In this document: piece by piece, positions 2,627-58,192 of the stretch
Position numbering within the stretch: the first letter of the stretch is position 1
Layout of the letters: each line of letters begins with the position of its first letter
Origin: Escherichia coli
GTDB taxonomy: Bacteria; Pseudomonadota; Gammaproteobacteria; Enterobacterales; Enterobacteriaceae
Length of the DNA stretch: 64,000 nucleotides
Direction: 5' to 3' (one strand)
NCBI RefSeq assembly: GCF_024223415.1
Contig: NZ_CP100500.1
Position numbers and translations under genes: made by a program
The notes under the pieces: generated by a model
Databases searched by the model: none
What the model was told of the DNA's origin: nothing
What the model saw: only the letters and a program-made list of their open reading frames with translations

Positions 2627-4027
2627 ATGAGCGTTGTGCCTGTAGCCGACGTACTCCAGGGCCGCGTAGCCGTTGACAGCGAAGTCACCGTACGCGGATG
2701 GGTACGTACCCGCCGAGATTCAAAAGCTGGCATCTCCTTCCTCGCCGTTTATGACGGTTCCTGCTTTGATCCTGTACAGGCTGTCATCAATAATTCTCTG
2801 CCCAATTACAATGAAGACGTCCTGCGTCTGACCACCGGTTGCTCGGTCATTGTGACGGGTAAAGTCGTGGCGTCGCCGGGCCAGGGGCAACAATTTGAAA
2901 TTCAGGCCAGCAAGGTTGAAGTTGCTGGTTGGGTTGAAGATCCAGACACTTACCCGATGGCGGCAAAACGCCACAGCATTGAGTATCTGCGTGAAGTCGC
3001 TCACCTGCGTCCGCGCACAAACCTGATTGGTGCCGTCGCGCGCGTTCGCCATACGCTGGCGCAGGCGCTGCATCGCTTCTTTAACGAGCAGGGATTCTTC
3101 TGGGTTTCAACGCCACTGATTACTGCGTCTGATACCGAAGGGGCTGGCGAAATGTTCCGCGTTTCTACGCTGGATCTGGAAAATCTGCCGCGTAACGATC
3201 AGGGCAAAGTGGATTTCGACAAAGACTTCTTTGGTAAAGAGTCTTTCCTGACCGTATCTGGCCAGTTGAACGGCGAAACCTACGCTTGCGCATTATCCAA
3301 AATTTATACCTTCGGCCCGACTTTCCGTGCTGAAAACTCCAACACCAGCCGTCACCTGGCGGAATTCTGGATGCTGGAGCCGGAAATGGCGTTTGCTAAC
3401 CTGAACGATATCGCAGGTCTGGCTGAAGCCATGCTGAAATATGTCTTCAAAGCGGTTCTCGAAGAACGCGCTGACGACATGAAATTCTTCTCTGAACGCG
3501 TAGATAAAGATGCCGTTTCACGTCTGGAACGCTTCATTGAAGCCGATTTTGCGCAGGTGGATTACACCGACGCAGTGACCATTCTCGAAAACTGCGGCAG
3601 GAAGTTTGAAAACCCGGTTTACTGGGGCGTTGATCTCTCTTCTGAGCATGAGCGTTATCTGGCGGAAGAACACTTTAAAGCACCGGTAGTGGTTAAAAAC
3701 TATCCGAAAGATATTAAAGCGTTCTATATGCGCCTTAACGAAGACGGTAAAACCGTTGCGGCTATGGACGTTCTGGCTCCGGGCATCGGTGAGATCATTG
3801 GTGGCTCCCAGCGTGAAGAACGTCTGGACGTGCTGGACGAGCGTATGCTGGAAATGGGCCTGAATAAAGAAGATTACTGGTGGTATCGCGATCTGCGTCG
3901 CTACGGTACCGTTCCGCATTCAGGTTTCGGTCTTGGTTTTGAACGCCTGATTGCTTACGTAACTGGTGTGCAAAACGTGCGTGATGTGATTCCGTTCCCA
4001 CGTACTCCGCGTAACGCCAGCTTCTAA
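2627..4027 (+). CDS. asnS: Asparaginyl-tRNA synthetase
   Basis: ORF track 2582..4027; start moved to [16 protein letters not shown]... (466 aa); class II aaRS motifs. Confidence 0.95.
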
Positions 4028-4069: not shown

Positions 4070-4418
4070 TCCTTTCTGTCAAGTTATCTGTTTGTTAAGT
4101 CAAGCAATCTATTTGCAACCCCGCCATAACGATCATCCTGTTACGGAATATTACATTGCAACATTTACGCACAAAAAATAACCCGCATTCTTATTGCGGA
4201 TTAGTTTTTTCTTAGCTAATAGCACAATTTTCATACTATTTTTTGGCATTCTGGATGTCTGAAAGAGGATTTTGGGCCAGGTCGATAAAGTTTCCATCAG
4301 AAACAAAATTTCCGTTTAGTTAATTTAAATATAAGGAAATCATATAAATAGATAAAAATTGCTGTAAATATCATCACGCCTCTATGGAAATATGACGGTG
4401 TTCACAAAGTTCCTTAAT

Positions 4419-4480
4419 TTTTACTTTTAGTTACATATTTTTTCTTTTTGAAACTAAATCTTTATCTTTGTAGCACTTTC
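4419..4480 (+). promoter_or_regulatory. ompF promoter-proximal OmpR-binding region
   Basis: AT-rich tract TTTTACTTTTAGTTACATATTTTTTCTTTTTGAAACTAAATCTTTATCTTTGTAGCAC about 150 bp upstream of ompF ATG; matches the OmpR F1-F3 region as I recall it. Confidence 0.6.
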
Positions 4481-4629
4481 ACGGTAGCGAAACGTTAGTT
4501 TGAATGGAAAGTTGCCTGCAGACACATAAAGACACCAAACTCTCATCAATAGTTCCGTAAATTTTTATTGACAGAACTTATTGACGGCAGTGGCAGGTGT
4601 CATAAAAAAAACCATGAGGGTAATAAATA

Positions 4630-5700
4630 ATGATGAAGCGCAATATTCTGGCAGTGATCGTCCCTGCTCTGTTAGTAGCAGGTACTGCAAACGCTGCAGA
4701 AATCTATAACAAAGATGGCAACAAAGTAGATCTGTACGGTAAAGCTGTCGGTCTGCATTATTTCTCCAAGGGTAACGGTGAAAACAGTTACGGTGGCAAT
4801 GGCGACATGACCTATGCCCGTCTTGGTTTTAAAGGGGAAACTCAAATCAATTCCGATCTGACCGGTTATGGTCAGTGGGAATATAACTTCCAGGGTAACA
4901 ACTCTGAAGGCACTGACGCTCAAACTGGTAACAAAACGCGTCTGGCATTCGCGGGTCTTAAATACGCTGACGTTGGTTCTTTCGATTACGGCCGTAACTA
5001 CGGTGTGGTTTATGATGCACTGGGTTACACCGATATGCTGCCAGAATTTGGTGGTGATACTGCATACAGCGATGACTTCTTCGTTGGTCGTGTTGGCGGC
5101 GTTGCTACCTATCGTAACTCCAACTTCTTCGGTCTGGTTGACGGCCTGAACTTCGCTGTTCAGTACCTGGGTAAAAACGAGCGTGACACTGCACGCCGCT
5201 CTAACGGCGACGGTGTTGGCGGTTCTATCAGCTATGAATACGAAGGCTTTGGTATCGTTGGTGCTTATGGTGCAGCTGACCGTACCAACCTGCAAGAAGC
5301 TCAACCTCTTGGCAAAGGCAAAAAAGCTGAACAGTGGGCAACTGGTCTGAAGTATGACGCGAACAACATCTACCTGGCAGCGAACTACGGTGAAACCCGT
5401 AACGCTACGCCAATTGATGGCGGCTTCGCCAACAAAACGCAAGACGTTCTGTTAGTTGCGCAATACCAGTTCGATTTCGGTCTGCGTCCGTCCATCGCTT
5501 ACACCAAATCTAAAGCGAAAGACGTAGAAGGTATCGGTGATGTTGATCTGGTGAACTACTTTGAAGTGGGCGCAACCTACTACTTCAACAAAAACATGTC
5601 CACCTATGTTGACTACATCATCAACCAGATCGATTCTGACAACAAACTGGGCGTAGGTTCTGACGACACCGTTGCTGTGGGTATCGTTTACCAGTTCTAA
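4630..5700 (+). CDS. ompF: Outer membrane porin OmpF (356 aa; loop variant relative to my memory of K-12)
   Basis: Signal peptide [38 protein letters not shown]..., C-terminal ...VGIVYQF. Confidence 0.95.
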
Positions 5701-5724: not shown

Positions 5725-5756
5725 GAAAAAACAGGACTTTGGTCCTGTTTTTTTTA
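5725..5756 (+). terminator. Rho-independent terminator after ompF
   Basis: AAAAAACAGGACtttgGTCCTGTTTTTTTT. Confidence 0.75.
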
Positions 5757-5884: not shown

Positions 5885-7075
5885 ATGTTTGAGAACATTA
5901 CCGCCGCTCCTGCCGACCCGATTCTGGGCCTGGCCGATCTGTTTCGTGCCGATGAACGTCCCGGCAAAATTAACCTCGGGATTGGTGTCTATAAAGATGA
6001 GACGGGCAAAACCCCGGTACTGACCAGCGTGAAAAAGGCTGAACAGTATCTGCTCGAAAATGAAACCACCAAAAATTACCTCGGCATTGACGGCATCCCT
6101 GAATTTGGTCGCTGCACTCAGGAACTGCTATTTGGTAAAGGTAGCGCCCTGATCAATGACAAACGTGCTCGCACGGCACAGACTCCGGGGGGCACTGGCG
6201 CACTACGCGTAGCTGCCGATTTCCTGGCAAAAAATACCAGCGTTAAGCGTGTGTGGGTGAGCAACCCAAGCTGGCCGAACCATAAGAGCGTCTTTAACTC
6301 TGCAGGTCTGGAAGTTCGTGAATACGCTTATTATGACGCGGAAAATCACACCCTTGACTTCGATGCACTGATTAACAGTCTGAACGAAGCTCAGGCTGGC
6401 GATGTAGTGCTGTTCCATGGCTGCTGCCATAACCCAACCGGTATCGACCCTACGCTGGAACAATGGCAGACACTGGCACAACTCTCCGTTGAGAAAGGCT
6501 GGTTACCGCTGTTTGACTTCGCTTACCAGGGGTTTGCCCGTGGTCTGGAAGAAGATGCTGAAGGACTGCGCGCTTTCGCAGCTATGCATAAAGAGCTGAT
6601 TGTTGCCAGTTCCTACTCTAAAAACTTTGGCCTGTACAACGAGCGTGTTGGCGCTTGTACTCTGGTTGCTGTTGACAGTGAAACCGTTGATCGCGCATTC
6701 AGCCAAATGAAAGCGGCGATTCGCGCTAACTACTCTAACCCACCAGCACACGGCGCTTCTGTTGTTGCCACCATCCTGAGCAACGATGCGTTACGTGCGA
6801 TTTGGGAACAAGAGTTGACTGATATGCGCCAGCGTATTCAGCGTATGCGTCAGTTGTTCGTCAATACGCTGCAGGAAAAAGGGGCAAACCGCGACTTCAG
6901 CTTTATCATCAAACAGAACGGCATGTTCTCCTTCAGTGGCCTGACAAAAGAACAAGTGCTGCGTCTGCGCGAAGAGTTTGGCGTGTATGCTGTTGCTTCT
7001 GGTCGCGTAAACGTGGCCGGGATGACACCAGATAATATGGCTCTGCTGTGCGAAGCGATTGTGGCAGTGCTGTAA
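5885..7075 (+). CDS. aspC: Aspartate aminotransferase
   Basis: 396 aa, [36 protein letters not shown]... Confidence 0.95.
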
Positions 7076-10635: not shown

Positions 10636-13600
10636 TTAACTCGCCTGAGAAGGCGCTTCGTCACTTCCTGGAAGCGTTTCAGGGAGTTGCGGCGCAAATC
10701 CTCGCAGGCCGACGACGTGAACGTGTTCGGTATTCTGGAAGACTTTACGCACCAGTTTATAGGTGGTGCCTTTCTCCGGGCTGATATTTTCCGGCGCTGC
10801 GATGATGAGCTGCATTTGCAAACGTTCACACAATTCAAACAGCGTGGCGATAGAACGAGCATCCAGTCGCGCTGCTTCATCGAGGAACAGCAGGCGGCAA
10901 GGAGAGATATCTTTACCGCGCAGGCGGCGAGATTCATCTTCCCAGCTTTGTACCACCATCACCAGAATCGACATACCGGTACCAATCGCCTCACCGGTCG
11001 ACAATGCACCAGACTCTGCGCGCAACCAGCCATCGGAACCACGGTTAACCTCAACTTCCATTTCCAGATAGTTGCGGTAATCCAGCAGTTCTTCGCCAAT
11101 GGTCTGCGGCGTGCGCTGCCCCATATCAATCTGCGGATTAAGACGCTGATACAATTTCGCCAGCGCTTCCGAGAAGGTCAGACGGTTGCTGTTAAACAGA
11201 TCCTGATGCTGCTCATGCTGTTCAGAGAGCACATCCAGCAGCATGGCGTGTGTTTCACGCACATTCACGTTGAGGCGCACGCTGTTCACCTGACCAAACG
11301 ATACGTTCTGCAACCCCTGGTTGAGCATACGGATACGGTTCTGCTCGCGCTGAATGGTTTTGCGAATGATGTTCGCCACGCTGCGGGAACTGATCGCCAG
11401 TTTCTGTTCACGGGAGGTTAATTCTTCGGTCAGACGGCTAAGTTCGATCTCCATCTGTTCGATAGCTTCCACCGGATCATCGGTACGAATAATATCCTGA
11501 CGAATACGTTCACGCAGATGCTGATAAACCGCCACGAAGAACTGAATTTTACGCTCCGGACGTTTCGGATCTTCCGACATGCGCAGCACGTCGCGCAGAT
11601 GTTCGTTATCCGCCACCGCCAGACGCAGCGCACCTAACGCCTTATCCGACATGGAACGCAAATCATCAGCGGAGAGATAAGCCAGCTCACGACGGTGTAA
11701 GCGGCGCTCAACGCCGTTATCTTTCACCATGCGCATGACTGCACACCAGCCCGCTTTGGCGGTCACTACCTGCTCGCGCATCTCAAAGTAATCACGCTCC
11801 AGCTTGCGCAGTTTGCGGGTCAGGTTGTCCATCTCCGCTTCGCAGAAGGTGAGCGCTTTTTCCAGTTGATTGCGGCGCGAACGGTTATTGCTCAGTTGTG
11901 CATGCAGCTCGTCACGGCGAATACGTGCCCGCTCTTCTGCCCCGCTATCAGCACGCACGCCGATATCCTGCAATTCACGTTGCAGATCGTTGAGTAGCTC
12001 TTTTTTGGTGTCGTAAGAACTTTTCAGCGAAGCCAGCACCTGGTTGTACTGACTCAACTGCGCTGCGTGACCGCGCAACGCTTCGCGAGCGCGGGTACGC
12101 TCCGCTTCCGCCTGTTCCAGACGTTCACGCAGTTTTTCGTTGAGATCGTTGTTACCGCTAAGCATTTCTGCCGAGTCAGAATAGCTAAAGTGCGCACGAC
12201 GCTGCACCACTTCCGTCAGGGCAAACGCCTGCTGACGGGCATCGCGCTGCATCTGCTGAGAGTACGCGTAATCTTCTTTTAACTGTTCGAACTGTTCCGG
12301 GTCGCTCTGCAATACCGAAACGATCGGTTCCAGTTTCGCCAGTTGATTGCCAAACTGCTGAACAAAACGCGCGGCTTCCTGGGCTTCATCCAGACGTTCG
12401 CGGATTTCATCGACGCGATCCGCCAGGCTGTCATCAGCCAACAGGTTGAGACGCGGCAGAATGCGGTTCAGCGCCGTAACGCCTTCTTTCGCCTGCTCAA
12501 ACTGAATACGCTGCTGCTGGTTATCATTTTCATGATTACTCAACGCCCGCTCCAGTTCGACGCGACGGCTGTTCAGTTGACGGATTTCTGCTTCCGGGTC
12601 AGACTCAAACGCCACCGCCAGATGACTGCCGATAAAGCGGCTGAACGCCTGATGCAGACGCTGGGTTTTCTGTACATCAAAGGAGAGCGTGGCGAAGCGT
12701 TCGGAAAGCACTTCACGCTCGGCATGGAGGCTTTCAATACGGCTTTCACGCGCAGCACGACCAAACAGCGGCACTTCCGGGAAACGTGAATAACGCCACT
12801 GACGATCGGCGATTTTCACCACTACCGCTTTTTCCAGCTCATCAACGCTGAACACGCTGTCATCGAATGACTGCGGATCCCCTTCGATCAAATAGAGATC
12901 TTCCGGGCAATCGGTCAAACCTTCCAGGTGTTCGGTTACCTGTGACAGATCTGGCACCACGATGGCGTGGCGTGACGGGCCATACAGCGCTGAGAAGTAC
13001 GGCGCATCTTCCAGGCTAACGTCGTCATAAATTTCTGACAGCAGCACACCACCAAAACGCTCCGCCAGCGCGTTCAGACGCTGATCTTCAGAGCCGCCAG
13101 GCTGGCTTAAACGTTCGATCTCTTCATCGACGGCGTTTTTGCGCGCGCCTACTTCATCGCGTTCAACAATCGCCTCGCGCTCACGCTCCAGCAACTGTTG
13201 CAGATATTCAGTGACGTCCTGGCTGGAGGAGAACTCTTCGCCGCACTGTTCACTCAACTGGTTGAGACTGTTTTGCGCTGCCAGCCAAACCGGTGCACGC
13301 TGCATCAAACTCTGAATGCGAGACTGCAGCTGTTCCTGCTCCTGACGCAGTGCCATACGCTCTTCGCGGGCGTTAGAAACGCTGTCGGAAAGAGAGGCAA
13401 TGCGCGCTTCCAGCTCCTGATGCAGGGCTTCCAGTTCGTCGATATCAAAATTCTTGCCCTGACGTTTGCAGAAATCTGCCAGCAGGCGTTCGGCTTCTTG
13501 CTGCTCGCGCAGACGCTGTTCCAGTTCACTTAAGCGCATCCGCAACGGTTGAACCTGCTCTGCCAGGTGACGCTGATCGACCCCTTCGCGCAATAGTTCG

Positions 13601-49177: not shown

Positions 49178-49289
49178 AGGGAGACAAAAAAAGCGCCCGC
49201 AGGAGATTTAACGGTACTTACTCCTCTTGCTGATTTCCTTATTTTTCAATAAGTAAACAAAAACAAGGGGAGCAAATTATCACAAATAA

Positions 49290-50285
49290 TTACTGGTCGA
49301 TGGACAGTTTATGGACACTTTCAGCCAGCGGATTAAAGCTGATCGCATCCTGTAAAAAGTCCGGTGAAAAATGCGCATACGTCATCGTTTGCTGAATCGT
49401 GGCGTGACCCAGGATCCTCTGCAACGTGACGATGTTCCCGCCGTTCATCATGAAATGCGTGGCGAACGTGTGCCGCATGACATGCGTGGCCTGCCCTTTG
49501 GGTAAGTCGGGCTTCACCTCCTGAAGGATCTCCCTGAAACTGAGATAATCAACCTGATATAACAGGCCGGTCCGGCGGGTTTTAATTAACGGCACAACGG
49601 AATCAGCTACAGGAACCGAGCGCGATTTCCCGTTCTTTGTGTTAAAGAACGTCACCCTGTTACCCACGATGTGTTCCCCGCGAAGCGTTGACGCCTCTTT
49701 CCATCTGGCCCCGGTCGAAAGGCACAGAATGGCAATGCGTCGTGCATCACCCTCAAGCCGTTTCAGAAGGCGATCAATCTCGTCATCTGAAAGAAAGGCC
49801 ATTTCTGTATTCTGAACCTTGAGTTTACGTATTCCGCGCACAGGGTTTTCGTTATGATAAACCTCCGCGTCAATTAACAACGAAAACATCGCAGATAAGG
49901 CGCACAGGTCGCGATTGATACTGGACGGCATCAGTCCCGCCTGCAACTTATCCGAGCGATACTCAATCATGAATTTTCGTGTCATCTGGCTGGCGCGCGG
50001 GTCCCCCATTTCACGTATCACCTTCTCCAGTCTGGTTCTGTAGGTATCACCATATGCCTGATTACGACCATCAAGCATCCACCACACCTCAATCAGTTCT
50101 GATAACCGCCGTTGATCGGCGGGCCTTGCCTGCCACGGGTTATTGTGGAAATTCTGAAGAACGTATCTTTCGAATTCCTGCGCCTTTGATTTCAGGGTGA
50201 AAATCTTACGAATCCGCCTTCCTCCCGCCCCCTGAGGCCTTACATCAACCTGATAACGTCCGTCTTTGAGTTGCTTAATCGACAT
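49290..50285 (-). CDS. int: P2-family tyrosine integrase
   Basis: ORF track 49290..50294; likely start MSIKQLKDGRY behind GGAGG; catalytic region HVMRHTFATHFMMNGGNI...ILGHATIQQTMTYAHF resembles P2 Int. Confidence 0.9.
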   Translation of the reverse strand: MSIKQLKDGRYQVDVRPQGAGGRRIRKIFTLKSKAQEFERYVLQNFHNNPWQARPADQRRLSELIEVWWMLDGRNQAYGDTYRTRLEKVIREMGDPRASQMTRKFMIEYRSDKLQAGLMPSSINRDLCALSAMFSLLIDAEVYHNENPVRGIRKLKVQNTEMAFLSDDEIDRLLKRLEGDARRIAILCLSTGARWKEASTLRGEHIVGNRVTFFNTKNGKSRSVPVADSVVPLIKTRRTGLLYQVDYLSFREILQEVKPDLPKGQATHVMRHTFATHFMMNGGNIVTLQRILGHATIQQTMTYAHFSPDFLQDAISFNPLAESVHKLSIDQ

Positions 50286-50354
50286 GATCAGCACCTCCGA
50301 CGGATAAACCTGTTAACCCCTGCTTACTGAACGCCGCCCGTTCAATATACAGCG

Positions 50355-50696
50355 TCAGCCAGCATTGCGGCCTGATTGGGGTGATTTTTGGGTATTGCGG
50401 GTTGAAACCTGATCGTCCTCCGACTGCGTGGAGCCATCAAGAGAGAGAGCCGGGGCGATCTGACCGGCAACAGGTAGCGTCTTATCTTTGATTAACCAGA
50501 ACATATATTTTTCAAACCGATCCACTTGAAGGACGGCCTCAACAATCTTTGCTCTGGCGATCTTTTGCCCTGACTCATAATTCCTGACAGTTGCCAGAGA
50601 TAACCCTGTAATATCAGCAAATTGCTTTTGAGTTAGCCCTTCCGTCTTGCGTATCAAACGCAACTTTTTCGCATAGTCTATTGACAAGATACTCAT
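50355..50696 (-). CDS. C: P2 C-type immunity repressor (HTH)
   Basis: 113 aa; HTH LTQKQFADITGLSLATVRNYESG; C-terminal GQIAPAL...SPQSG resembles my recollection of P2 C. Confidence 0.8.
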   Translation of the reverse strand: MSILSIDYAKKLRLIRKTEGLTQKQFADITGLSLATVRNYESGQKIARAKIVEAVLQVDRFEKYMFWLIKDKTLPVAGQIAPALSLDGSTQSEDDQVSTRNTQKSPQSGRNAG

Positions 50697-50799
50697 TTGG
50701 GGATTAATCTCCTACAAAAGATAACCGTACGGTTATCTTTACAAGTCATCAAAAATCATCAAAAGGCGCAACAAGCGCACCAATGCAAGAGGATAACAA
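50697..50799. promoter_or_regulatory. Divergent Pc/Pe switch region with operator-like repeats
   Basis: Perfect 18-bp palindrome GATAACCGTACGGTTATC (~50720-50737) and tandem 10-bp direct repeats TCATCAAAAA/TCATCAAAAG (~50746-50765) between C and cox-like starts. Confidence 0.6.
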
Positions 50800-51321
50800 A
50801 TGCGGGAGATTATTGCCGACAAAGAGTTATCTGGCGCTCAACCGGTTCAGGATGATGGCGCGGACAATGAATTCATTGAAGCTGCCAACGACAACGAACA
50901 CCTGGAAACCAAAACCAGACCGTCCTACAAAAAGGGCGCAACCCTACGACTGGACGGCCCAGTCGCAGGACTTGTGTCACTGGAAAAAGGGGCTGCCTAT
51001 CTGGGGGTAACAAAATCTGCGCTACGCGCCGCCATTCAGCGCGGGCAGATGCCGGGTCACAAAACGCGCTCAAATCCCGAAGATGAAAAGTCAGACGGTA
51101 CATGGTGGTTTAACGCCAAAGCCTGGGACGAACTAGCCGACGAACTACTGGAGTGCGAACCGCCAGAGTGGCACAACTGGAAAAGCTACTGGACGTACGA
51201 CCGCAAGAAAAGAAAGTTTTCACCGGCAAACAAGGAGGACTGCCAGACCGTTAAAGGTAAGCAGGTTTACTCCCCCAGAGTTTCAAAACTGGAGCAACTC
51301 AAAAACAACCAGCCCGGCTAA
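50800..51321 (+). CDS. cox: Cox-like excisionase/regulator with N-terminal extension
   Basis: 173 aa, RBS AGAGGA; central HTH LEKGAAYLGVTKSALRAAIQRGQMP and GTWWFNAKAWDELADELLE resemble P2 Cox, which is ~91 aa. Confidence 0.65.
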   Translation: MREIIADKELSGAQPVQDDGADNEFIEAANDNEHLETKTRPSYKKGATLRLDGPVAGLVSLEKGAAYLGVTKSALRAAIQRGQMPGHKTRSNPEDEKSDGTWWFNAKAWDELADELLECEPPEWHNWKSYWTYDRKKRKFSPANKEDCQTVKGKQVYSPRVSKLEQLKNNQPG

Positions 51322-51329
51322 ACACGAAA

Positions 51330-51536
51330 ATGACCAGCAATATCATCAGCGCCATTCTGACACTTGTTTTTATTGAGATAGGCGTAATAGCGATCTATTT
51401 GTTTCGTAAGTTAACGGGACATGAAGAACGCTTTATTGAACTCAGCATTGAATATATCGCCGCTTATACCAAAGGACTTTTCCCGGCAGCTATTGGGGCG
51501 ATGTTTATAGCGTTTGTTATCTGGTTTATCGGGTGA
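51330..51536 (+). CDS. Small hypothetical membrane protein (2 predicted TM)
   Basis: 68 aa, hydrophobic segments ISAILTLVFIEIGVIAIYLF and AAIGAMFIAFVIWFIG. Confidence 0.45.
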   Translation: MTSNIISAILTLVFIEIGVIAIYLFRKLTGHEERFIELSIEYIAAYTKGLFPAAIGAMFIAFVIWFIG

Positions 51537-51787
51537 GAAACCTGATAAACCACAACTACTGCAATGAGGGTAATTATGTGTGGCATGGACAAATTGGACC
51601 TTATGTTAATTGTAATACTATCAATTAACTTCGGTTACCTCTTAAGCGGCGTAATTCTCATGTGCGGAGGCAAACGAAAATGAACCAGCAGTCCGCAAAA
51701 CGTGAACACAATGCGATGCGATTTAATCGCAAATATTTTGAGTTCGCCGCTATGCCGGAATAATTAAATCTGTACAGAGTCTTTAAC

Positions 51788-52126
51788 ATGAAACAGCAAC
51801 GTAATTCACGCTTTCGTAATGGTGCTGAACGTCACGCTAACCGTTTCGCTACCAGTGCATCACGTAGTAACTCCCGCTACAGCCTGAGCGAGACACACGC
51901 AACACCGGGCGGTCATGCTGTAAAACAGACTGGTCAACACACCTGGCTGATTGAGCAGGCCGGACTCGTGATCCACAGATGCCACCGCAATCCGTTTACC
52001 GGAAACCGCATTTTTGCACTGAGCAGCGGCGACAATCAGTTCGGACAGGATTTCACACTGCACGAAGCCTTGCGAACTGCCGACCGCTTAATCGAGGGGC
52101 GCAGCTTTCAGCATACCGACTACTAA
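51788..52126 (+). CDS. Hypothetical early-operon protein
   Basis: 112 aa ORF co-oriented with early operon. Confidence 0.5.
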   Translation: MKQQRNSRFRNGAERHANRFATSASRSNSRYSLSETHATPGGHAVKQTGQHTWLIEQAGLVIHRCHRNPFTGNRIFALSSGDNQFGQDFTLHEALRTADRLIEGRSFQHTDY

Positions 52127-52164
52127 GGCAAAAGGAGTCTTAATAAGACAGAAGAGGCAGCAAG

Positions 52165-52407
52165 ATGAAAAGAGCCTATAAAGAACTCATTAACCACGCG
52201 CTTCAGAATTACCATTACGGACTTACAAGCCGTGGCACTAACGGTGACGCTGTTTCACTTGCAGCACTGACTACAGCAATCAAGGGCCTGACCTGTTGCG
52301 CCTTTGGTTCCGGAGATAATGAAGCTCTGACGGAATTACAGGCCATTAATAAAGACCTGTCTGAAGGAAACGTAATAACCCCCTTTGTAATTCAGGAGGA
52401 AGCATGA
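52165..52407 (+). CDS. Hypothetical early-operon protein
   Basis: 80 aa, RBS-like GGCAGCAAG upstream. Confidence 0.5.
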   Translation: MKRAYKELINHALQNYHYGLTSRGTNGDAVSLAALTTAIKGLTCCAFGSGDNEALTELQAINKDLSEGNVITPFVIQEEA

Positions 52408-52529
52408 GCGTATTTATGTCATGGTTAATTCTTATCCTTGCCATTATTTGCGCTGTGGGGATTATGCGGGTAATTAACAGCATTAACACCATTGAATCGT
52501 TATTTACTGGCGATAAGCGCCGTAAATAA
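52404..52529 (+). CDS. Small hydrophobic peptide (41 aa, 1 TM), hypothetical
   Basis: ATGA overlap with preceding stop, strong RBS AGGAGG; MSVFMSWLILILAIICAVGIMRVINSINTIESLFTGDKRRK; below ORF-track size cutoff. Confidence 0.4.
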   Translation: MSVFMSWLILILAIICAVGIMRVINSINTIESLFTGDKRRK

Positions 52530-52609
52530 ACAGGCGTTTAACACCAGAAACAACCAGAAACATCCGCTCACGCGGAGGGGTTGACCCGCTCAAAAAGGAG
52601 AAATCAGGA

Positions 52610-52903
52610 ATGCTTAATAATAAAAAAAACCGAATCATTGATAACAGTGAACAGGTCAACAAAATAATCGAAGGCACAAACAAATTAATTAAGAAAAAAA
52701 ACAAACTAAGCCGTGAATTAATGGAACATCCGGAAGAAATATTATTAGCCATGATGCACCAGACAGAAGCGATAGCCATCGCCCTTGCCGTGCAGGCGCT
52801 TTCTGAGTTCCGGGAAGAAAACATCAGGCTGGCTCAGGAGCTGAAAAACCTCAGACGTCAGCTTCAGAGCACTGAGGCTGGCACGTCATCACGAATGCAC
52901 TGA
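52610..52903 (+). CDS. Hypothetical protein, Lys-rich N-terminus then helical C-terminus
   Basis: 97 aa, RBS AAAGGAG; 5' half markedly AT-rich compared with neighbours. Confidence 0.55.
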   Translation: MLNNKKNRIIDNSEQVNKIIEGTNKLIKKKNKLSRELMEHPEEILLAMMHQTEAIAIALAVQALSEFREENIRLAQELKNLRRQLQSTEAGTSSRMH

Positions 52904-52913
52904 GGGCCACACC

Positions 52914-53123
52914 ATGACTGCAATTCTGAGAAGACGCAATAAAACGCTTTTTACCGATACATCCGGGATGGAATACGAAGTGGAAAGCAGTGTCATAGCC
53001 ACCACCACCCGATGCCCGGCAGGTGACGAACTGATTTACGTCCACCTGACGGACGGGTCACAGATAACCGTCCTGACAGAGTCATGGCGCGAACTCGAGA
53101 TAATAAGCGAGGTAAGAACATGA
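52914..53123 (+). CDS. Hypothetical early-operon protein
   Basis: 69 aa. Confidence 0.45.
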   Translation: MTAILRRRNKTLFTDTSGMEYEVESSVIATTTRCPAGDELIYVHLTDGSQITVLTESWRELEIISEVRT

Positions 53124-53332
53124 GCAGCAAACACGATACCAACGCACGCAGACCAGGCAAAGAGGCGCGTCACCATATCGCCGTAATGCGCAACCTGCTT
53201 ATGAGTGAAATCGACGATTTTGTGGCAGGCCTGGGGCAACCGGGCGAACCAGCAACACCAGGCCAGATACACAGGGAATTACGCCGCCGCGTGGAAAACG
53301 TCGTGGATTACGTCATAAACCCGAACGACTGA
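53120..53332 (+). CDS. Hypothetical early-operon protein
   Basis: ORF track 53084..53332; preferred start MSSKHDTNARRPGK with ATGA overlap and GAGG RBS. Confidence 0.45.
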   Translation: MSSKHDTNARRPGKEARHHIAVMRNLLMSEIDDFVAGLGQPGEPATPGQIHRELRRRVENVVDYVINPND

Positions 53333-53371
53333 CGGGAACATGGCGAGCGTCAGATGACACACGCAGGGCAC

Positions 53372-53854
53372 TTATCGGGACAAACCGATCGTAATCGCAG
53401 CCATCATCTTTTCAGCGAAAGAGAGAGATTCACGATGACTGATATTCAGAGACATACAGGCTTTGTTGTACGCCACATTTTCCATGCATTCCAGGACAGG
53501 AGAGTCATGCATCTCAAGCTCTGGAAGGCGTGCCAGCAGAGCTTCCGTACTGAGGAGGGCGCTTTTGGTAATCAACTCATTGTAGCGATGGGCATGCTCA
53601 CTCGCCGCCTGCGCACGTTGCCCGAAACGACATATGAAATTACAGGCTCCGAGAACCACCACCACTGCCCCCAGCACCCAGCCGAAATGCCAGCCGGCTA
53701 CGATGAACGCACCCGCCGCAAGGATCAAAATGTTGATGATCGCATCAAGGCGACGATTGAACACCGCCGCGATGCGCTCCAGCCAGTAGCTGTACCAGAG
53801 ACGGAACATGACCTCATCCCGTTCTCTCGATTTTTTACGTTGGTTGTTTTGCAT
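53372..53854 (-). CDS. Membrane protein encoded antisense to the early operon (candidate moron)
   Basis: 160 aa, RBS GAGGG; two clear TM helices (AIINILILAAGAFIVAGW, GWVLGAVVVVLGACNFI); the overlapping + strand ORF 53354..53989 is low-complexity. Confidence 0.55.
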   Translation of the reverse strand: MQNNQRKKSRERDEVMFRLWYSYWLERIAAVFNRRLDAIINILILAAGAFIVAGWHFGWVLGAVVVVLGACNFICRFGQRAQAASEHAHRYNELITKSALLSTEALLARLPELEMHDSPVLECMENVAYNKACMSLNISHRESLSFAEKMMAAITIGLSR

Positions 53855-54088
53855 GGTGTTTTATCCCTCATCGTCATCGCTCTGCCCCTAATCAGCGCAG
53901 AGTGCAGGGTAACCTGGCTCGTGGAATTTTTGCAGCCAGACATCTTTACCCCCGGGCGTGTTGAACAAAGTGTCCGCCAGATCCACTGAACGGCGGATTC
54001 ATCAATGCTAACACGCCCTTCTTTTCCGGTTGAAGGCGAAAAAACCGGACCATTACCCCGACACAAAACAGAACAACGGAGAACAACT

Positions 54089-54643
54089 ATGCCCGCACTT
54101 AAACCTATGGGTGTATCAGGTGTACCACCGAAGCATGTCAGAGCCTGGACACAACAGGAAGATGCTCTACTGGTCGGTTTATACCCCTCCCACACCGTAC
54201 CAGAACTGACAAAACACTTTCAGAGAACCGGGCCAGCAATACGAAGCCGCATCCGTCTTTTGCTCTCTCAGGGGGTTATCCACACCAAACAACCCCCCCT
54301 GAATACAAAAGAACTCAACACGCTCATCAGGAATCGCCACACAAAAACCATCCGGGAACTCGCGAATGAACTGGGGCGCTCGACATCCACGGTGGGACTG
54401 AACCTGAGAAAAAGAGGGTACCGGTTCAGGAAATACGGGGAACTCCACCACAGAGCCAGATACAGCGATCACCTGGTGGAGTTGGTAACTGAACTGCGCG
54501 ATGAACAGGGGATGACATTCAGCGAAATCAGAAAGTACATCCGGGACACGACCGGGATATCCCTTAAAAGATGGGTCCTCGCCCGGCTTTACGCACGATA
54601 TACCGCCGCTGACACCGTGCTTTGCGAACTGCTACCGGACTGA
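54089..54643 (+). CDS. Putative DNA-binding protein with three HTH-like repeats
   Basis: ORF track 54005..54643; start moved to MPALKPMGVSG behind GGAGAA; repeated helix-turn-helix-like segments (..TVPELTKHFQRTGPAIRSRIRLL.., ..TIRELANELGRSTSTVGLNLRKRG.., ..TFSEIRKYIRDTTGISLKRW..). Confidence 0.55.
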   Translation: MPALKPMGVSGVPPKHVRAWTQQEDALLVGLYPSHTVPELTKHFQRTGPAIRSRIRLLLSQGVIHTKQPPLNTKELNTLIRNRHTKTIRELANELGRSTSTVGLNLRKRGYRFRKYGELHHRARYSDHLVELVTELRDEQGMTFSEIRKYIRDTTGISLKRWVLARLYARYTAADTVLCELLPD

Positions 54644-54966
54644 GTAACCACTATGCACACACAAAAAAACCGCTTGCCATGCCGCAATCAGTCAGGTTAC
54701 ATTTCCGCTGCACCTCATAAAACGGGTGCCGGGATTGCAACCCCCGCTGACAAACGAAGCGCACAACCGCGCCAGCGGTTTTTTTGTGCGTACCGTATCG
54801 CCACGTCTTTTTCGCACCAGAATTATGGTGGGGCGTACGGGGCCGACTTCGGTCGGGCCGGTTTCTTCGTTTGCCGGTGGTTGCAACCCTGTACGTCTCG
54901 CCACCCAGAATTGCAACCTCTGGATGGTGAGTATCCAAAAACTCACAAACGAAGAGGCCAAACACC

Positions 54967-55194
54967 ATGGCAAACCGCAAACAACAGCGCGCATACGCTG
55001 CGCGTCGTCACATCCAGACTGAAATCAACCGCAGACTTTCCCGCGCATTCCGCGTCGCGCATATCATGCACATCAATATGCTGCATGAGCGCAGCCACGC
55101 ACTGTCAAACATGTATTCCGCCGCTGTATTCAGCTACCTGGCGGATGACCTGCGCAAGCTGCAGGACCTCATTAACCAGCACTACCACCACTAA
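54967..55194 (+). CDS. Hypothetical early-operon protein
   Basis: 75 aa, basic, RBS GAAGAGG. Confidence 0.5.
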   Translation: MANRKQQRAYAARRHIQTEINRRLSRAFRVAHIMHINMLHERSHALSNMYSAAVFSYLADDLRKLQDLINQHYHH

Positions 55195-55262
55195 TCAACA
55201 TCCCGGAGCCATCCCGCCCCCGTACGCGGGAGGCTTCCGCACGTCCGTTTCCGGAGGTTCTC

Positions 55263-55676
55263 ATGAAGAGCGTTAAGGGACTTTCAGATATTCAGGATTT
55301 TTTTAACTGGATGTGGGCGGTGGATCCACGCCTCGCTTCCCGTCTCAATGACCTGCATGACTATTACCGCCGCGCCTGTAAACAGGCCGCCAGCAGCGCC
55401 ACCACATACGGGAATTTTTCCTTCACCGTTGATGACCGTTACCGCGTGGATGTCAGAGACCAGAACCACAGCATGGTGCTGGGCCTGTTCCACATCAACG
55501 GGTGCGACAGCAGCGTTATCAGCTGGTCATCGTCAGAAATGGTGCTCGTTCTGGAAATGACCACCCACAGCGTGGTCGTGAAAGGGATTAAAACAGCAGA
55601 AGACTTTATCGCTGAATACCAGCGCCTTCTTGTGCTGTACCGGGCTGCATTTGAGAAGGCAACAGCAGGGGAGTAA
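55263..55676 (+). CDS. Hypothetical protein immediately upstream of A
   Basis: 137 aa, RBS GGAGG. Confidence 0.55.
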   Translation: MKSVKGLSDIQDFFNWMWAVDPRLASRLNDLHDYYRRACKQAASSATTYGNFSFTVDDRYRVDVRDQNHSMVLGLFHINGCDSSVISWSSSEMVLVLEMTTHSVVVKGIKTAEDFIAEYQRLLVLYRAAFEKATAGE

Positions 55677-55681
55677 GCGGA

Positions 55682-58192
55682 ATGAGCCATCACCACACGC
55701 ACCTGGCGTACCCGTGGAACGCCCCGCTGCCGGTTATTGATCCTGAGACATTCGGCAGAGCATTACCGCAGAAGCCAACCGCATTACAACGGGCAATCCG
55801 TGACTACCTCACCGAAGACATTCGCACTGAGGCCCGGCTGGATGAAGAAACCGTGGCCTTCCTGACAACCACGGACAAAGGTAAGCAAATTAATTCACAC
55901 CTTCACCGGGACGAAGAGCGGCAGATAAGGCTGGATAAGCTGGCACGACACAGACGCGAAAATCCGCCAACGGCGGTATCGGAGGCGATAGCCGAACTTC
56001 GCACCCTGCCCTCGTTTCTTGCCAGTGTGTTGATCCGTGATCTGGCACGACTGAACCGGAAACAGCAAAGTGCCCGCAGTGAAGGTGTAAAAAACAACAG
56101 CGCATACGTGGCCGATAATTTCGTTCGCCGTGGACTGCGTGCGCGCCTGAAACGTATTGAAAGGGTTAACGACCGCTTTGCAACGCCGGCATTCAAAACC
56201 ACCGTCGTGCGCCATCGCCTTGAAGAACTGCTCACACTGCCGCAACTCACCCGTGACGAAATCCAGCGCATCGCCACACTGACAGCCCAGGCATTCGCCG
56301 CAGAATTTGAACGCATATGTGATGAAGTTCTTGAACGGACAGGCAAGGATAATGACAGCCCGGTTATCTGGCTGCTGGCCTACCAGAAGGTGGCACGCAC
56401 AGCCTTAATTCTGGGCGTGGTCCCGCCATACTGGCCGGAACTCGAAATCAGGCACAACCGACGCACACCGCCGGACCCTGAACGGGTTCCGGGTGCGGTA
56501 CTGCGCATCACCTGCGCGACCTGGTGGAACAACCAGTTACGCCACGTCGCCGATCTCTGGCGGGAGGAGTTACTGCGCGCCGCCGGCAGAGTGTCACGTA
56601 AACAATCCCCCTATATCAGCCATGAGTCACTACTGGAGTTCCGCGAGAAGCGCCAGCGCACCCGTGACTTTCTCAAAAGCTGGGATATTGAAAACGAAGA
56701 CGGCGAGCGCCTGAGTCTGGAGGACGTGTACTGGGCTGGCCTGGGTAATCCACGCAACCGCCGCAATGAAATGATGGTCTGCGTCAGAGGGATGGAGATG
56801 GTGGCCGAATTACGGGCTGACGTCGCATTCTTCATCACAGTAACCACCCCTTCCCGCTTTCACAGCGTGAACGAGAACGGCAGCCTGAACCCGAAATACA
56901 ACGGTGCCACAGTACGAGATGCCAGTGATTATCTGGTTTACGACTTCTTCGCAGCCGTAAGAAAAAAAATAAAAAAAGAGGGGCTGGGCTGGTACGGCGT
57001 GCGAACCGCTGAGCCACACCATGACGGCACGCCACACTGGCATATGCTGGTATTCACTTCCCCGGAGAACGCAGAGCGCATCATCGAAATTATGCGCGAA
57101 GCAGCAATTAAATCAGATCGCCACGAACTGGGGGACGATATTTCACCGCGCTTTAAATGCGAGAAGATAGACCCGGAAAAAGGCACACCGGCAAGCTATA
57201 TCGCAACCTATATCGGTAAGAACCTGGACGCCAGCGCTTTCCACAACAATGATCCGAAAACCGGAAAACCTTACGTTGATGAGGAATCCGGGAAAACCAT
57301 GGCGGAAACCGTGGAGAACGCCATTGCCTGGGCAAGCCTTCACCGCATCCGTCAGTTCCAGTTTTTCGGCATTCCGCCCCGCCAGGTATGGCGTGAACTC
57401 CGCCGCCTTGCAAGCCAGATGGAGCGCAACCCGGCATCACCGAAGCACCTCGATCATGACGATATTGACGCCATTATGGCTGCCGCAGATGTGGGATGTT
57501 TTGCCACCTACATCATGAAACAGGGTGGTGTGCTCATTCCGCGCAACCAGTATCTGGTCCGCACCGCATACGAAACCGCAGACGAAGCCAACGACTACGG
57601 TGAATTCCCTCAACGTATCTACGGAATCTGCGCCCCGTCGCTCGGAGAGCGGTACACCATATGCACCCATCCGGACGAGTGGAAACTGGTTAAAAAAGAA
57701 ACAACACCAGACAACCGCACGGGCGAGGGTTTTGACCTTCAGGGCGACCCCGTCGCCCCTTGGACTCGTGGCAATAACTGTCCCCGGGATGAAAAAACAG
57801 ACAATCACGGACCAGAAAACAGGCAGGACCCCGGACGACTGACGCTTCCCGAAGAGAACCTGGAAAGCTGGCTGAATACGTTAAGCAGGGGCGATCGGAG
57901 AAAACTGCGTAATCAGATTAAAAATCAGCCGTCGGGCGCAAAAACCGGACAAAACGACACCACACCGGCATCTGACACCCCTGTAAGGGTGGGGATTGTC
58001 GTGCCTGCGGATACCGCGACGGACACGCAAATCGCCCGCGAACTTGATGCGCTGGGTGTGCAGTTGCCTGACGCGGCCATCATCTCCGTGCGTAACGGTG
58101 CCCGTGTGCGTCTGGATAACGGGGGAACAGCGTACTGGGATGAGTCAGCCCGTCACATCATCACAGAGCAGCCAGTGGAGGCGGGAGCATGA
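55682..58192 (+). CDS. A: P2 gpA-like rolling-circle replication initiator
   Basis: 836 aa; HUH-type motif TPHWHMLVF and paired tyrosines YIATYIGKN; larger than P2 A (~761 aa as I recall). Confidence 0.9.
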   Translation: MSHHHTHLAYPWNAPLPVIDPETFGRALPQKPTALQRAIRDYLTEDIRTEARLDEETVAFLTTTDKGKQINSHLHRDEERQIRLDKLARHRRENPPTAVSEAIAELRTLPSFLASVLIRDLARLNRKQQSARSEGVKNNSAYVADNFVRRGLRARLKRIERVNDRFATPAFKTTVVRHRLEELLTLPQLTRDEIQRIATLTAQAFAAEFERICDEVLERTGKDNDSPVIWLLAYQKVARTALILGVVPPYWPELEIRHNRRTPPDPERVPGAVLRITCATWWNNQLRHVADLWREELLRAAGRVSRKQSPYISHESLLEFREKRQRTRDFLKSWDIENEDGERLSLEDVYWAGLGNPRNRRNEMMVCVRGMEMVAELRADVAFFITVTTPSRFHSVNENGSLNPKYNGATVRDASDYLVYDFFAAVRKKIKKEGLGWYGVRTAEPHHDGTPHWHMLVFTSPENAERIIEIMREAAIKSDRHELGDDISPRFKCEKIDPEKGTPASYIATYIGKNLDASAFHNNDPKTGKPYVDEESGKTMAETVENAIAWASLHRIRQFQFFGIPPRQVWRELRRLASQMERNPASPKHLDHDDIDAIMAAADVGCFATYIMKQGGVLIPRNQYLVRTAYETADEANDYGEFPQRIYGICAPSLGERYTICTHPDEWKLVKKETTPDNRTGEGFDLQGDPVAPWTRGNNCPRDEKTDNHGPENRQDPGRLTLPEENLESWLNTLSRGDRRKLRNQIKNQPSGAKTGQNDTTPASDTPVRVGIVVPADTATDTQIARELDALGVQLPDAAIISVRNGARVRLDNGGTAYWDESARHIITEQPVEAGA

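Follow-up and report, generated by a model that had tools for sequence, protein, structure and literature searches.

A short-L6 ompF allele of apparent mosaic origin in Escherichia coli

The ompF locus and its promoter

The window, which here denotes the entire 64,000-nucleotide stretch of Escherichia coli DNA that was analysed (contig NZ_CP100500.1), contains an ompF coding sequence of 356 codons plus a stop codon at positions 4630 to 5700, as given by the list of open reading frames. It lies between asnS (annotated start at 2627, end at 4027) upstream and aspC (5885 to 7075) downstream, and all three genes, like every ompF feature described below, are on the + strand. The order asnS-ompF-aspC is the K-12 arrangement in reverse reading, and the annotated ompF genes of K-12 and SCU-316 show the same synteny. 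The mechanical list of open reading frames opens asnS at a GTG at 2582 (481 amino acids), and relatives have the gene annotated from the ATG at 2627 (466 amino acids). Downstream of the ompF stop codon, direct reading of the sequence revealed a terminator-like hairpin at 5726 to 5756 (AACAGGAC TTTG GTCCTGTT, with a stretch of T after it), which is absent from the output of the consensus scan.

The encoded protein scored 771.5 bits against the NCBIfam OmpF equivalog model NF007446 (cutoff of 583) and fell under the cutoffs of both the PhoE model (489, cutoff of 599) and the OmpC model (461, cutoff of 484). It also matched the Pfam Porin_1 family (PF00267) with an E value of 2.8e-138. The phmmer alignment with the 362-residue K-12 OmpF, represented by PDB chain sequences 3hw9, 2omf, 1opf, and others, runs from end to end; 353 of the 356 aligned residues are the same as in K-12 outside the gap described below, and identity to the solved structures is 98%. 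The 22-residue signal peptide (4630 to 4695), delimited by the mature chains 1opf and 2omf that start at residue 23 with AEIYNK, is the same as that of K-12, as are the C-terminal YQF and residues 96 to 228, which include the constriction loop L3. An AlphaFold2 model of the window protein, built from a 46-sequence alignment with a mean pLDDT of 74, presents the series of strands expected for a 16-stranded barrel, with the long L3 (carrying PEFGG) at residues 122 to 158 and a C-terminal aromatic residue. K-12 OmpF (P02931; PDB 2OMF, 1OPF, and 3HW9) is a 16-strand general porin encoded at the same locus, and the two proteins share all strands together with loops L1, L3, L4, L7, and L8.

Upstream of the gene, direct reading together with the list of differences places the OmpR boxes F1, F2, and F3 at 4420 to 4439, 4440 to 4459, and 4460 to 4479, within limits that we take from the K-12 ompF promoter (−100 to −41). 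Here the window differs from K-12 by two natural substitutions in the OmpR boxes and one private substitution in the −10 hexamer. The sequence-only reading, made from the letters alone, had noted that the F1-like box departs from K-12 at one position, and this difference is real: the window reads TTTTACTTTTAG, with A at 4429 where K-12 has G. The second lies in F2, with T at 4455 where K-12 has C. Both are ordinary, common polymorphisms, with A4429 also found in IAI39, DG343-1, and O157:H7 and T4455 in O157:H7 and a B2 strain, and the 81-bp stretch from 4400 to 4480 that spans the three boxes is identical in 342 complete genomes, O157:H7 included.

Transcription presumably starts near 4520, a position derived from the known 110-nt leader. 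The extended −10 element at 4505 to 4513 consists of TGG followed by AAAGTT, where K-12 has AAAGAT, the TGn-dependent −10 hexamer described for ompF (PMC2613000). The difference, T at 4512, is a private A-to-T change at −8, as A occupies this position in all 10 fetched relatives, including the near-identical SCU-316, NCTC10444, and KV7. A 69-bp probe centered on T4512 found no full-length match at 100% identity among 5412 complete E. coli genomes, the six that otherwise nearly equal the window included. The change takes away one of the three matches of the ompF hexamer to TATAAT, and −8 is among the less critical positions of −10 elements. The ompF promoter is too weak to be picked up by the consensus promoter scan, which therefore gave no score for the change. 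A measurable drop in expression is possible but not likely.

Surface-loop differences from K-12 OmpF

The main difference between the two proteins resides in extracellular loop L6. The length of 356 residues against 362 in K-12, already noted in the sequence-only reading, was borne out by the list of open reading frames and by phmmer against the K-12 chains in the PDB. The K-12 segment TNKFTNTSG had been given correctly, and the pairwise alignment with K-12 contains one six-residue gap, located where that reading had put it, between 5405 and 5435. At this point the K-12 sequence PI-TNKFTNTSG-FANK (TNKFTNTSG being precursor residues 263 to 271 and mature residues 241 to 249) becomes PI-DGG-FANK, with Asp263-Gly264-Gly265 encoded by GAT GGC GGC at 5416 to 5424, a net loss of six residues. 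In DNA, K-12 reads CCG ATC ACT AAT AAA TTT ACA AAC ACC AGC GGC TTC and the window CCA ATT GAT GGC GGC TTC, which amounts to an in-frame length difference of 18 nt plus five neighboring substitutions. The length difference is a real allelic difference and not an alignment artefact.

Mapping on the AlphaFold2 model places the change in L6, which spans precursor residues 258 to 268 (5401 to 5433) between strands at residues 247 to 257 and 269 to 279. These are the 11th and 12th strands counted from the N terminus (β11 and β12), and the L6 stretch is modeled with a pLDDT of 84 to 90. The loop thus counts 11 residues in the window protein and 17 in K-12. Mature K253, the lysine of the FANK motif directly after L6, is kept, and this residue is named among the lipopolysaccharide (LPS)-binding residues of OmpF in a passage of PMC11325540 that cites Arunmanee et al. 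2016.

Besides L6, the phmmer alignment to the PDB chains shows just two differences from K-12 OmpF. Codon 95 (ACT, 4912 to 4914) encodes Thr in place of Ala (A95T, mature A73T) and falls in L2 according to the strand count of the model; the residue is Ala in every other class allele examined. Codon 229 (AAA, 5314 to 5316) encodes Lys in place of Asn in loop L5 (N229K, mature N207K), a substitution that is also carried by the one B2 allele examined. N229K creates the sequence GKGKK in L5, with a third lysine adjoining K209 and K210, and these two lysines are likewise listed as LPS-binding residues in the same passage of PMC11325540, citing Arunmanee 2016.

Distribution and origin of the allele

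The window protein is identical to RefSeq entry WP_000977933.1, annotated as porin OmpF, which is found in SCU-316 (human), NCTC10444 (calf), KV7 (pig), and O78 strain 3 (human). An exact look-up in a collection of 15 billion proteins retrieved it on at least 1000 contigs, and it is present in UniProt as A0A2S7GRG5. This abundance bears on a sequencing or assembly artefact, or a decaying pseudogene, as the source of the shorter loop, which we regard as negligibly probable: the reading frame is intact and of full length, the independently sequenced SCU-316, NCTC10444, and KV7 show no difference from the window within 4630 to 5700, nor does O78 strain 3, and GPEC1446 and NCTC9112 match exactly over the L6 probe described next.

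The frequency of the short L6 was estimated with a 121-bp probe (5360 to 5480) that matched 5408 of 5426 complete E. coli genomes. The matches fall into bands of at least 99% identity (435 genomes), 95 to 99% (61), 90 to 95% (1), and 80 to 90% (4911). The lowest band is where the long L6 is found, because its 18-nt gap and mismatches give that identity, and all four genomes fetched from it (K-12, DG343-1, O157:H7, and an O2:K2:H1 strain) carry the long form. The short L6 would then be present in about 497 of the 5408 genomes (about 9%), a figure that derives from BLAST identity bands and not from per-genome allele calls. Among the fetched genomes with the short form, 042, IAI39, and MSB1_7A are one base off the window within the probe, with GAA (Glu) for GAT (Asp), and a 100% match to the probe occurs in six genomes only, GPEC1446 and NCTC9112 among them. 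The carriers of a short L6 include 042, IAI39, SMS-3-5, CE10, an ST648 strain, and PCN033, which we assign to phylogroups D and F.

Over its first 25 kb the window is virtually identical to the same six genomes that match the probe at 100%, with 6 differences from SCU-316 and 7 from O78 strain 3. The next-best genomes after this six-member clade drop to 99.3% and carry a long-L6 allele. The ompF allele of the window thus marks the lineage of a small clade whose members come from humans, chickens, pigs, and calves.

Several other differences were observed between the window and these close relatives. Four bases besides T4512 differ from both SCU-316 and O78 strain 3, as follows: C to T at 2603, lying 24 nt ahead of the start annotated for asnS; G to A at 3386, which gives V254M in AsnS; C to T at 7044, which gives P387L in AspC; and G to A at 11263, which is synonymous in mukB. 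With 4512 this makes five private changes in 9 kb, mostly G:C to A:T, and none in the following 14 kb. Between 36653 and 36872, corresponding to the focA-ycaO intergenic region, four indels of 1 to 2 nt and two single-nucleotide differences separate the window from SCU-316. A P2-like prophage (integrase, portal, large terminase, and replication endonuclease) occupies 49204 to 64000, starting at a dmsA/serS intergenic site; it is missing from SCU-316 and is 100% identical in the chicken isolates DG341-1 and DG343-1.

The window has its short L6 (PI-E/D-GG-FANK) in common with the allele of 042, IAI39, and CE10 (WP_000977905.1, 357 amino acids), and over the 3′ third of the gene the two are nearly identical. 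That allele is unlike the window in its DNA from 4764 to 5319 (about 15% divergence), in L1, L2, L4 (one residue longer), and L5, and in the Glu at the tip of L6. A 2.4-kb alignment of the window with ten other genomes displays the same pattern, with about 85 differences between the window and 042/IAI39 over 4764 to 5319 and just one or two between 5320 and the stop codon (5700). Compared with K-12, the window presents about ten scattered differences in 4630 to 5319, followed by a cluster at 5340, 5355, 5412, and 5415 to 5419 together with the 18-nt gap.

Informative-site analysis places an apparent recombination junction in the interval from 5314 to 5340, with K-12-class sequence on its left and 042/IAI39-class sequence on its right. 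The ratio of K-12-like to 042-like informative sites is 84-91:4-10 to the left of the split and 2:4-6 to its right. The best split within this interval gives Fisher p values of 4e-5 to 3e-4, which are uncorrected for the choice of breakpoint and include few informative sites to the right of the junction, the 3′ third of ompF being almost invariant. Past 5420 the alleles are all too similar to set a right-hand boundary. The alignment of the proteins agrees with the junction, as L1, L2, L4, and L5 are of the K-12 type and L6 is of the 042 type apart from the change of Glu to Asp. None of the residues typical of 042 (D48, V51, K60, K99, the AGIPE insertion, and DA..EFR.Q) occurs in the window, which is K-12-type at all of these positions. 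The allele is therefore a recombinant rather than a full member of the 042 type, even though it carries both the x-G-G tip between PI and FANK and the silent-site haplotype at 5340 to 5419 that define the short-L6 class.

Alternatively, the short L6 could be a fresh in-frame deletion of 18 nt that arose in this lineage from a K-12-like allele. The remainder of the protein is almost the same as in K-12, and the nearest genomes outside the six-member clade, such as TUM13936 (99.3% over 25 kb), carry the long-L6 protein WP_000977914.1, as a fresh deletion would predict. Nevertheless, this origin is very improbable, since CCA ATT GAT GGC GGC cannot arise from K-12 by the loss of 18 nt alone and would require five more substitutions, while the segment and the silent sites at 5340, 5355, 5412, and 5415 to 5419 are those of the 042/IAI39 allele but for one nucleotide, and the same short segment occurs in about 490 other genomes. 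The most economical origin would be homologous recombination inside the gene, between two allele classes that already existed. The two thirds of ompF nearer the promoter, which encode L1 to L5, are of the K-12/O157 sequence class, and the sequence from about 5340 through L6 matches the phylogroup D/F class represented by 042 and IAI39, with one exception, Glu to Asp (GAA to GAT), at the loop tip.

Both lengths of L6 extend beyond E. coli. In the best 120 cluster representatives of a protein search, we compared the stretch flanked by the conserved RNAT... and ...ANKTQD. Short tips of the x-G-G or x-x-G form are found in Citrobacter amalonaticus and C. sedlakii (PISGG), C. koseri (AIDGG), and Salmonella enterica (RITGG), and similar ones in Kosakonia, Buttiauxella, Raoultella, Dryocola, and Superficieibacter. 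The long form, TN-x-x-T/N-x-x-SG, characterizes the E. coli K-12 class and is represented by RFTNGINNVSG in the C. freundii complex and RFTNGLTDASG in another C. koseri protein; still longer tips occur in Kosakonia and Cronobacter. Overall, the tip counts between about 3 and about 16 residues in these enterobacterial OmpF homologues, and the strands on either side are conserved. A single-member cluster outside the window (P0002) holds an E. coli OmpF of 385 residues with a 23-residue tandem duplication over L6 and part of β12. As judged from this comparison, the short and long L6 are an old length dimorphism and not the product of a fresh deletion. Because both length classes occur in several genera, “deletion relative to K-12” describes a pairwise alignment and not a history.

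Shuffling of OmpF loops within E. coli is also on record. In bioRxiv 10.1101/2021.09.21.461324, ompF is described as a patchwork of loop hypervariable regions (HVRs) that have recombined into several groups, with HVR5 corresponding to L6 and showing gain or loss of multiple residues, and with CE10 forming its own group. The window allele, with K-12-type HVR1 to HVR4 and a short HVR5, is an instance of the mosaicism reported in that study, which names five groups. The indel noticed in the sequence-only reading was thus right in length, position, and sequence, and its singularity was overstated: it belongs to an allele class that is widespread, RefSeq and UniProt already contain the identical protein, and length variation in L6 has been described. 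The OmpF of the window is an already catalogued natural allele and not a new feature.

Pore function and surface recognition

Taken together, we consider it very probable that the window contains an intact, ordinary ompF gene carrying the naturally circulating allele WP_000977933.1, that this allele has a mosaic origin, and that its product presents an altered surface. The difference from K-12 is confined to the outward face of the porin, and the barrel and constriction are unchanged. In general, OmpF forms a trimeric, cation-selective diffusion pore under the control of EnvZ/OmpR and micF. Given the identity of the barrel, L3, signal peptide, YQF, and K253, the pore should work as in K-12. 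This expectation may fail for the amount of OmpF, because T4512 might alter expression.

The outward face is where OmpF is recognized by phages and colicins. Phage K20 fails to bind when exposed residues of loop 5, 6, or 7 are substituted, and the channel stays unaffected, according to the citing passages of PMC12032242 and PMC6499177 (Traurig & Misra 1999), findings obtained with point mutants of K-12 OmpF and not with a natural short-L6 allele. Of these loops, L7 is identical to K-12 in the window, L5 carries N229K, and L6 the indel. OmpF is also a receptor for T-even-type Gp38 adhesins, and the OmpF dependence of phage Bas47 is confirmed in the BASEL paper, which does not address loop alleles. 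The report of a gain of function in phage lambda (PMC6646904) covers J only and not the contact residues of OmpF. Colicin N attaches by its globular domain to the outer, extracellular side of OmpF, aided by LPS, and its N terminus binds inside the lumen (PMC7335789).

An effect of the short L6 on phage and colicin sensitivity, as suggested in the sequence-only reading, is plausible, because K20 binding needs L5, L6, and L7. With six fewer residues at the tip of L6 and N207K in the neighboring L5, agents adapted to the K-12 surface would recognize the porin differently or not at all. Those that contact L6 in its K-12 form, phage K20 for instance and perhaps some adhesins of the T-even type, probably recognize the short form less well or no longer. 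Passage through the lumen, as by the N termini of colicin E9 and colicin N, should be unaffected.

The short L6 may instead be selectively neutral, a tolerated change in length without consequence for recognition by phages, colicins, or antibodies. This is a serious alternative, although we consider it clearly the less probable one. It is consistent with the range of about 3 to 16 residues at the L6 tip of enterobacterial homologues with conserved flanking strands, and with the binding of the colicin N and E9 N termini within the lumen. On the other hand, the reported loss of K20 binding upon substitutions in L5, L6, or L7 argues against neutrality, as does the coincidence of the variable regions of E. 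coli porins with phage-binding sites and their reshuffling by recombination, as stated in bioRxiv 10.1101/2021.09.21.461324. A further reading, in which the strain combines the inherited short L6 with an ompF transcription lowered by T4512, the latter a recent adaptive decrease in OmpF in response to phages, colicins, or antibiotics, appears unlikely.

The short-L6 allele reveals no new mechanism, family, or open question. Natural loop alleles of OmpF are one of several factors that set how an E. coli strain is attacked by phages, colicins, and contact-dependent toxins. Knowledge that a strain carries an OmpF of the K-12 kind except for a short L6 helps in host-range prediction and in the choice of phages, and has little value beyond these other than for strain typing.
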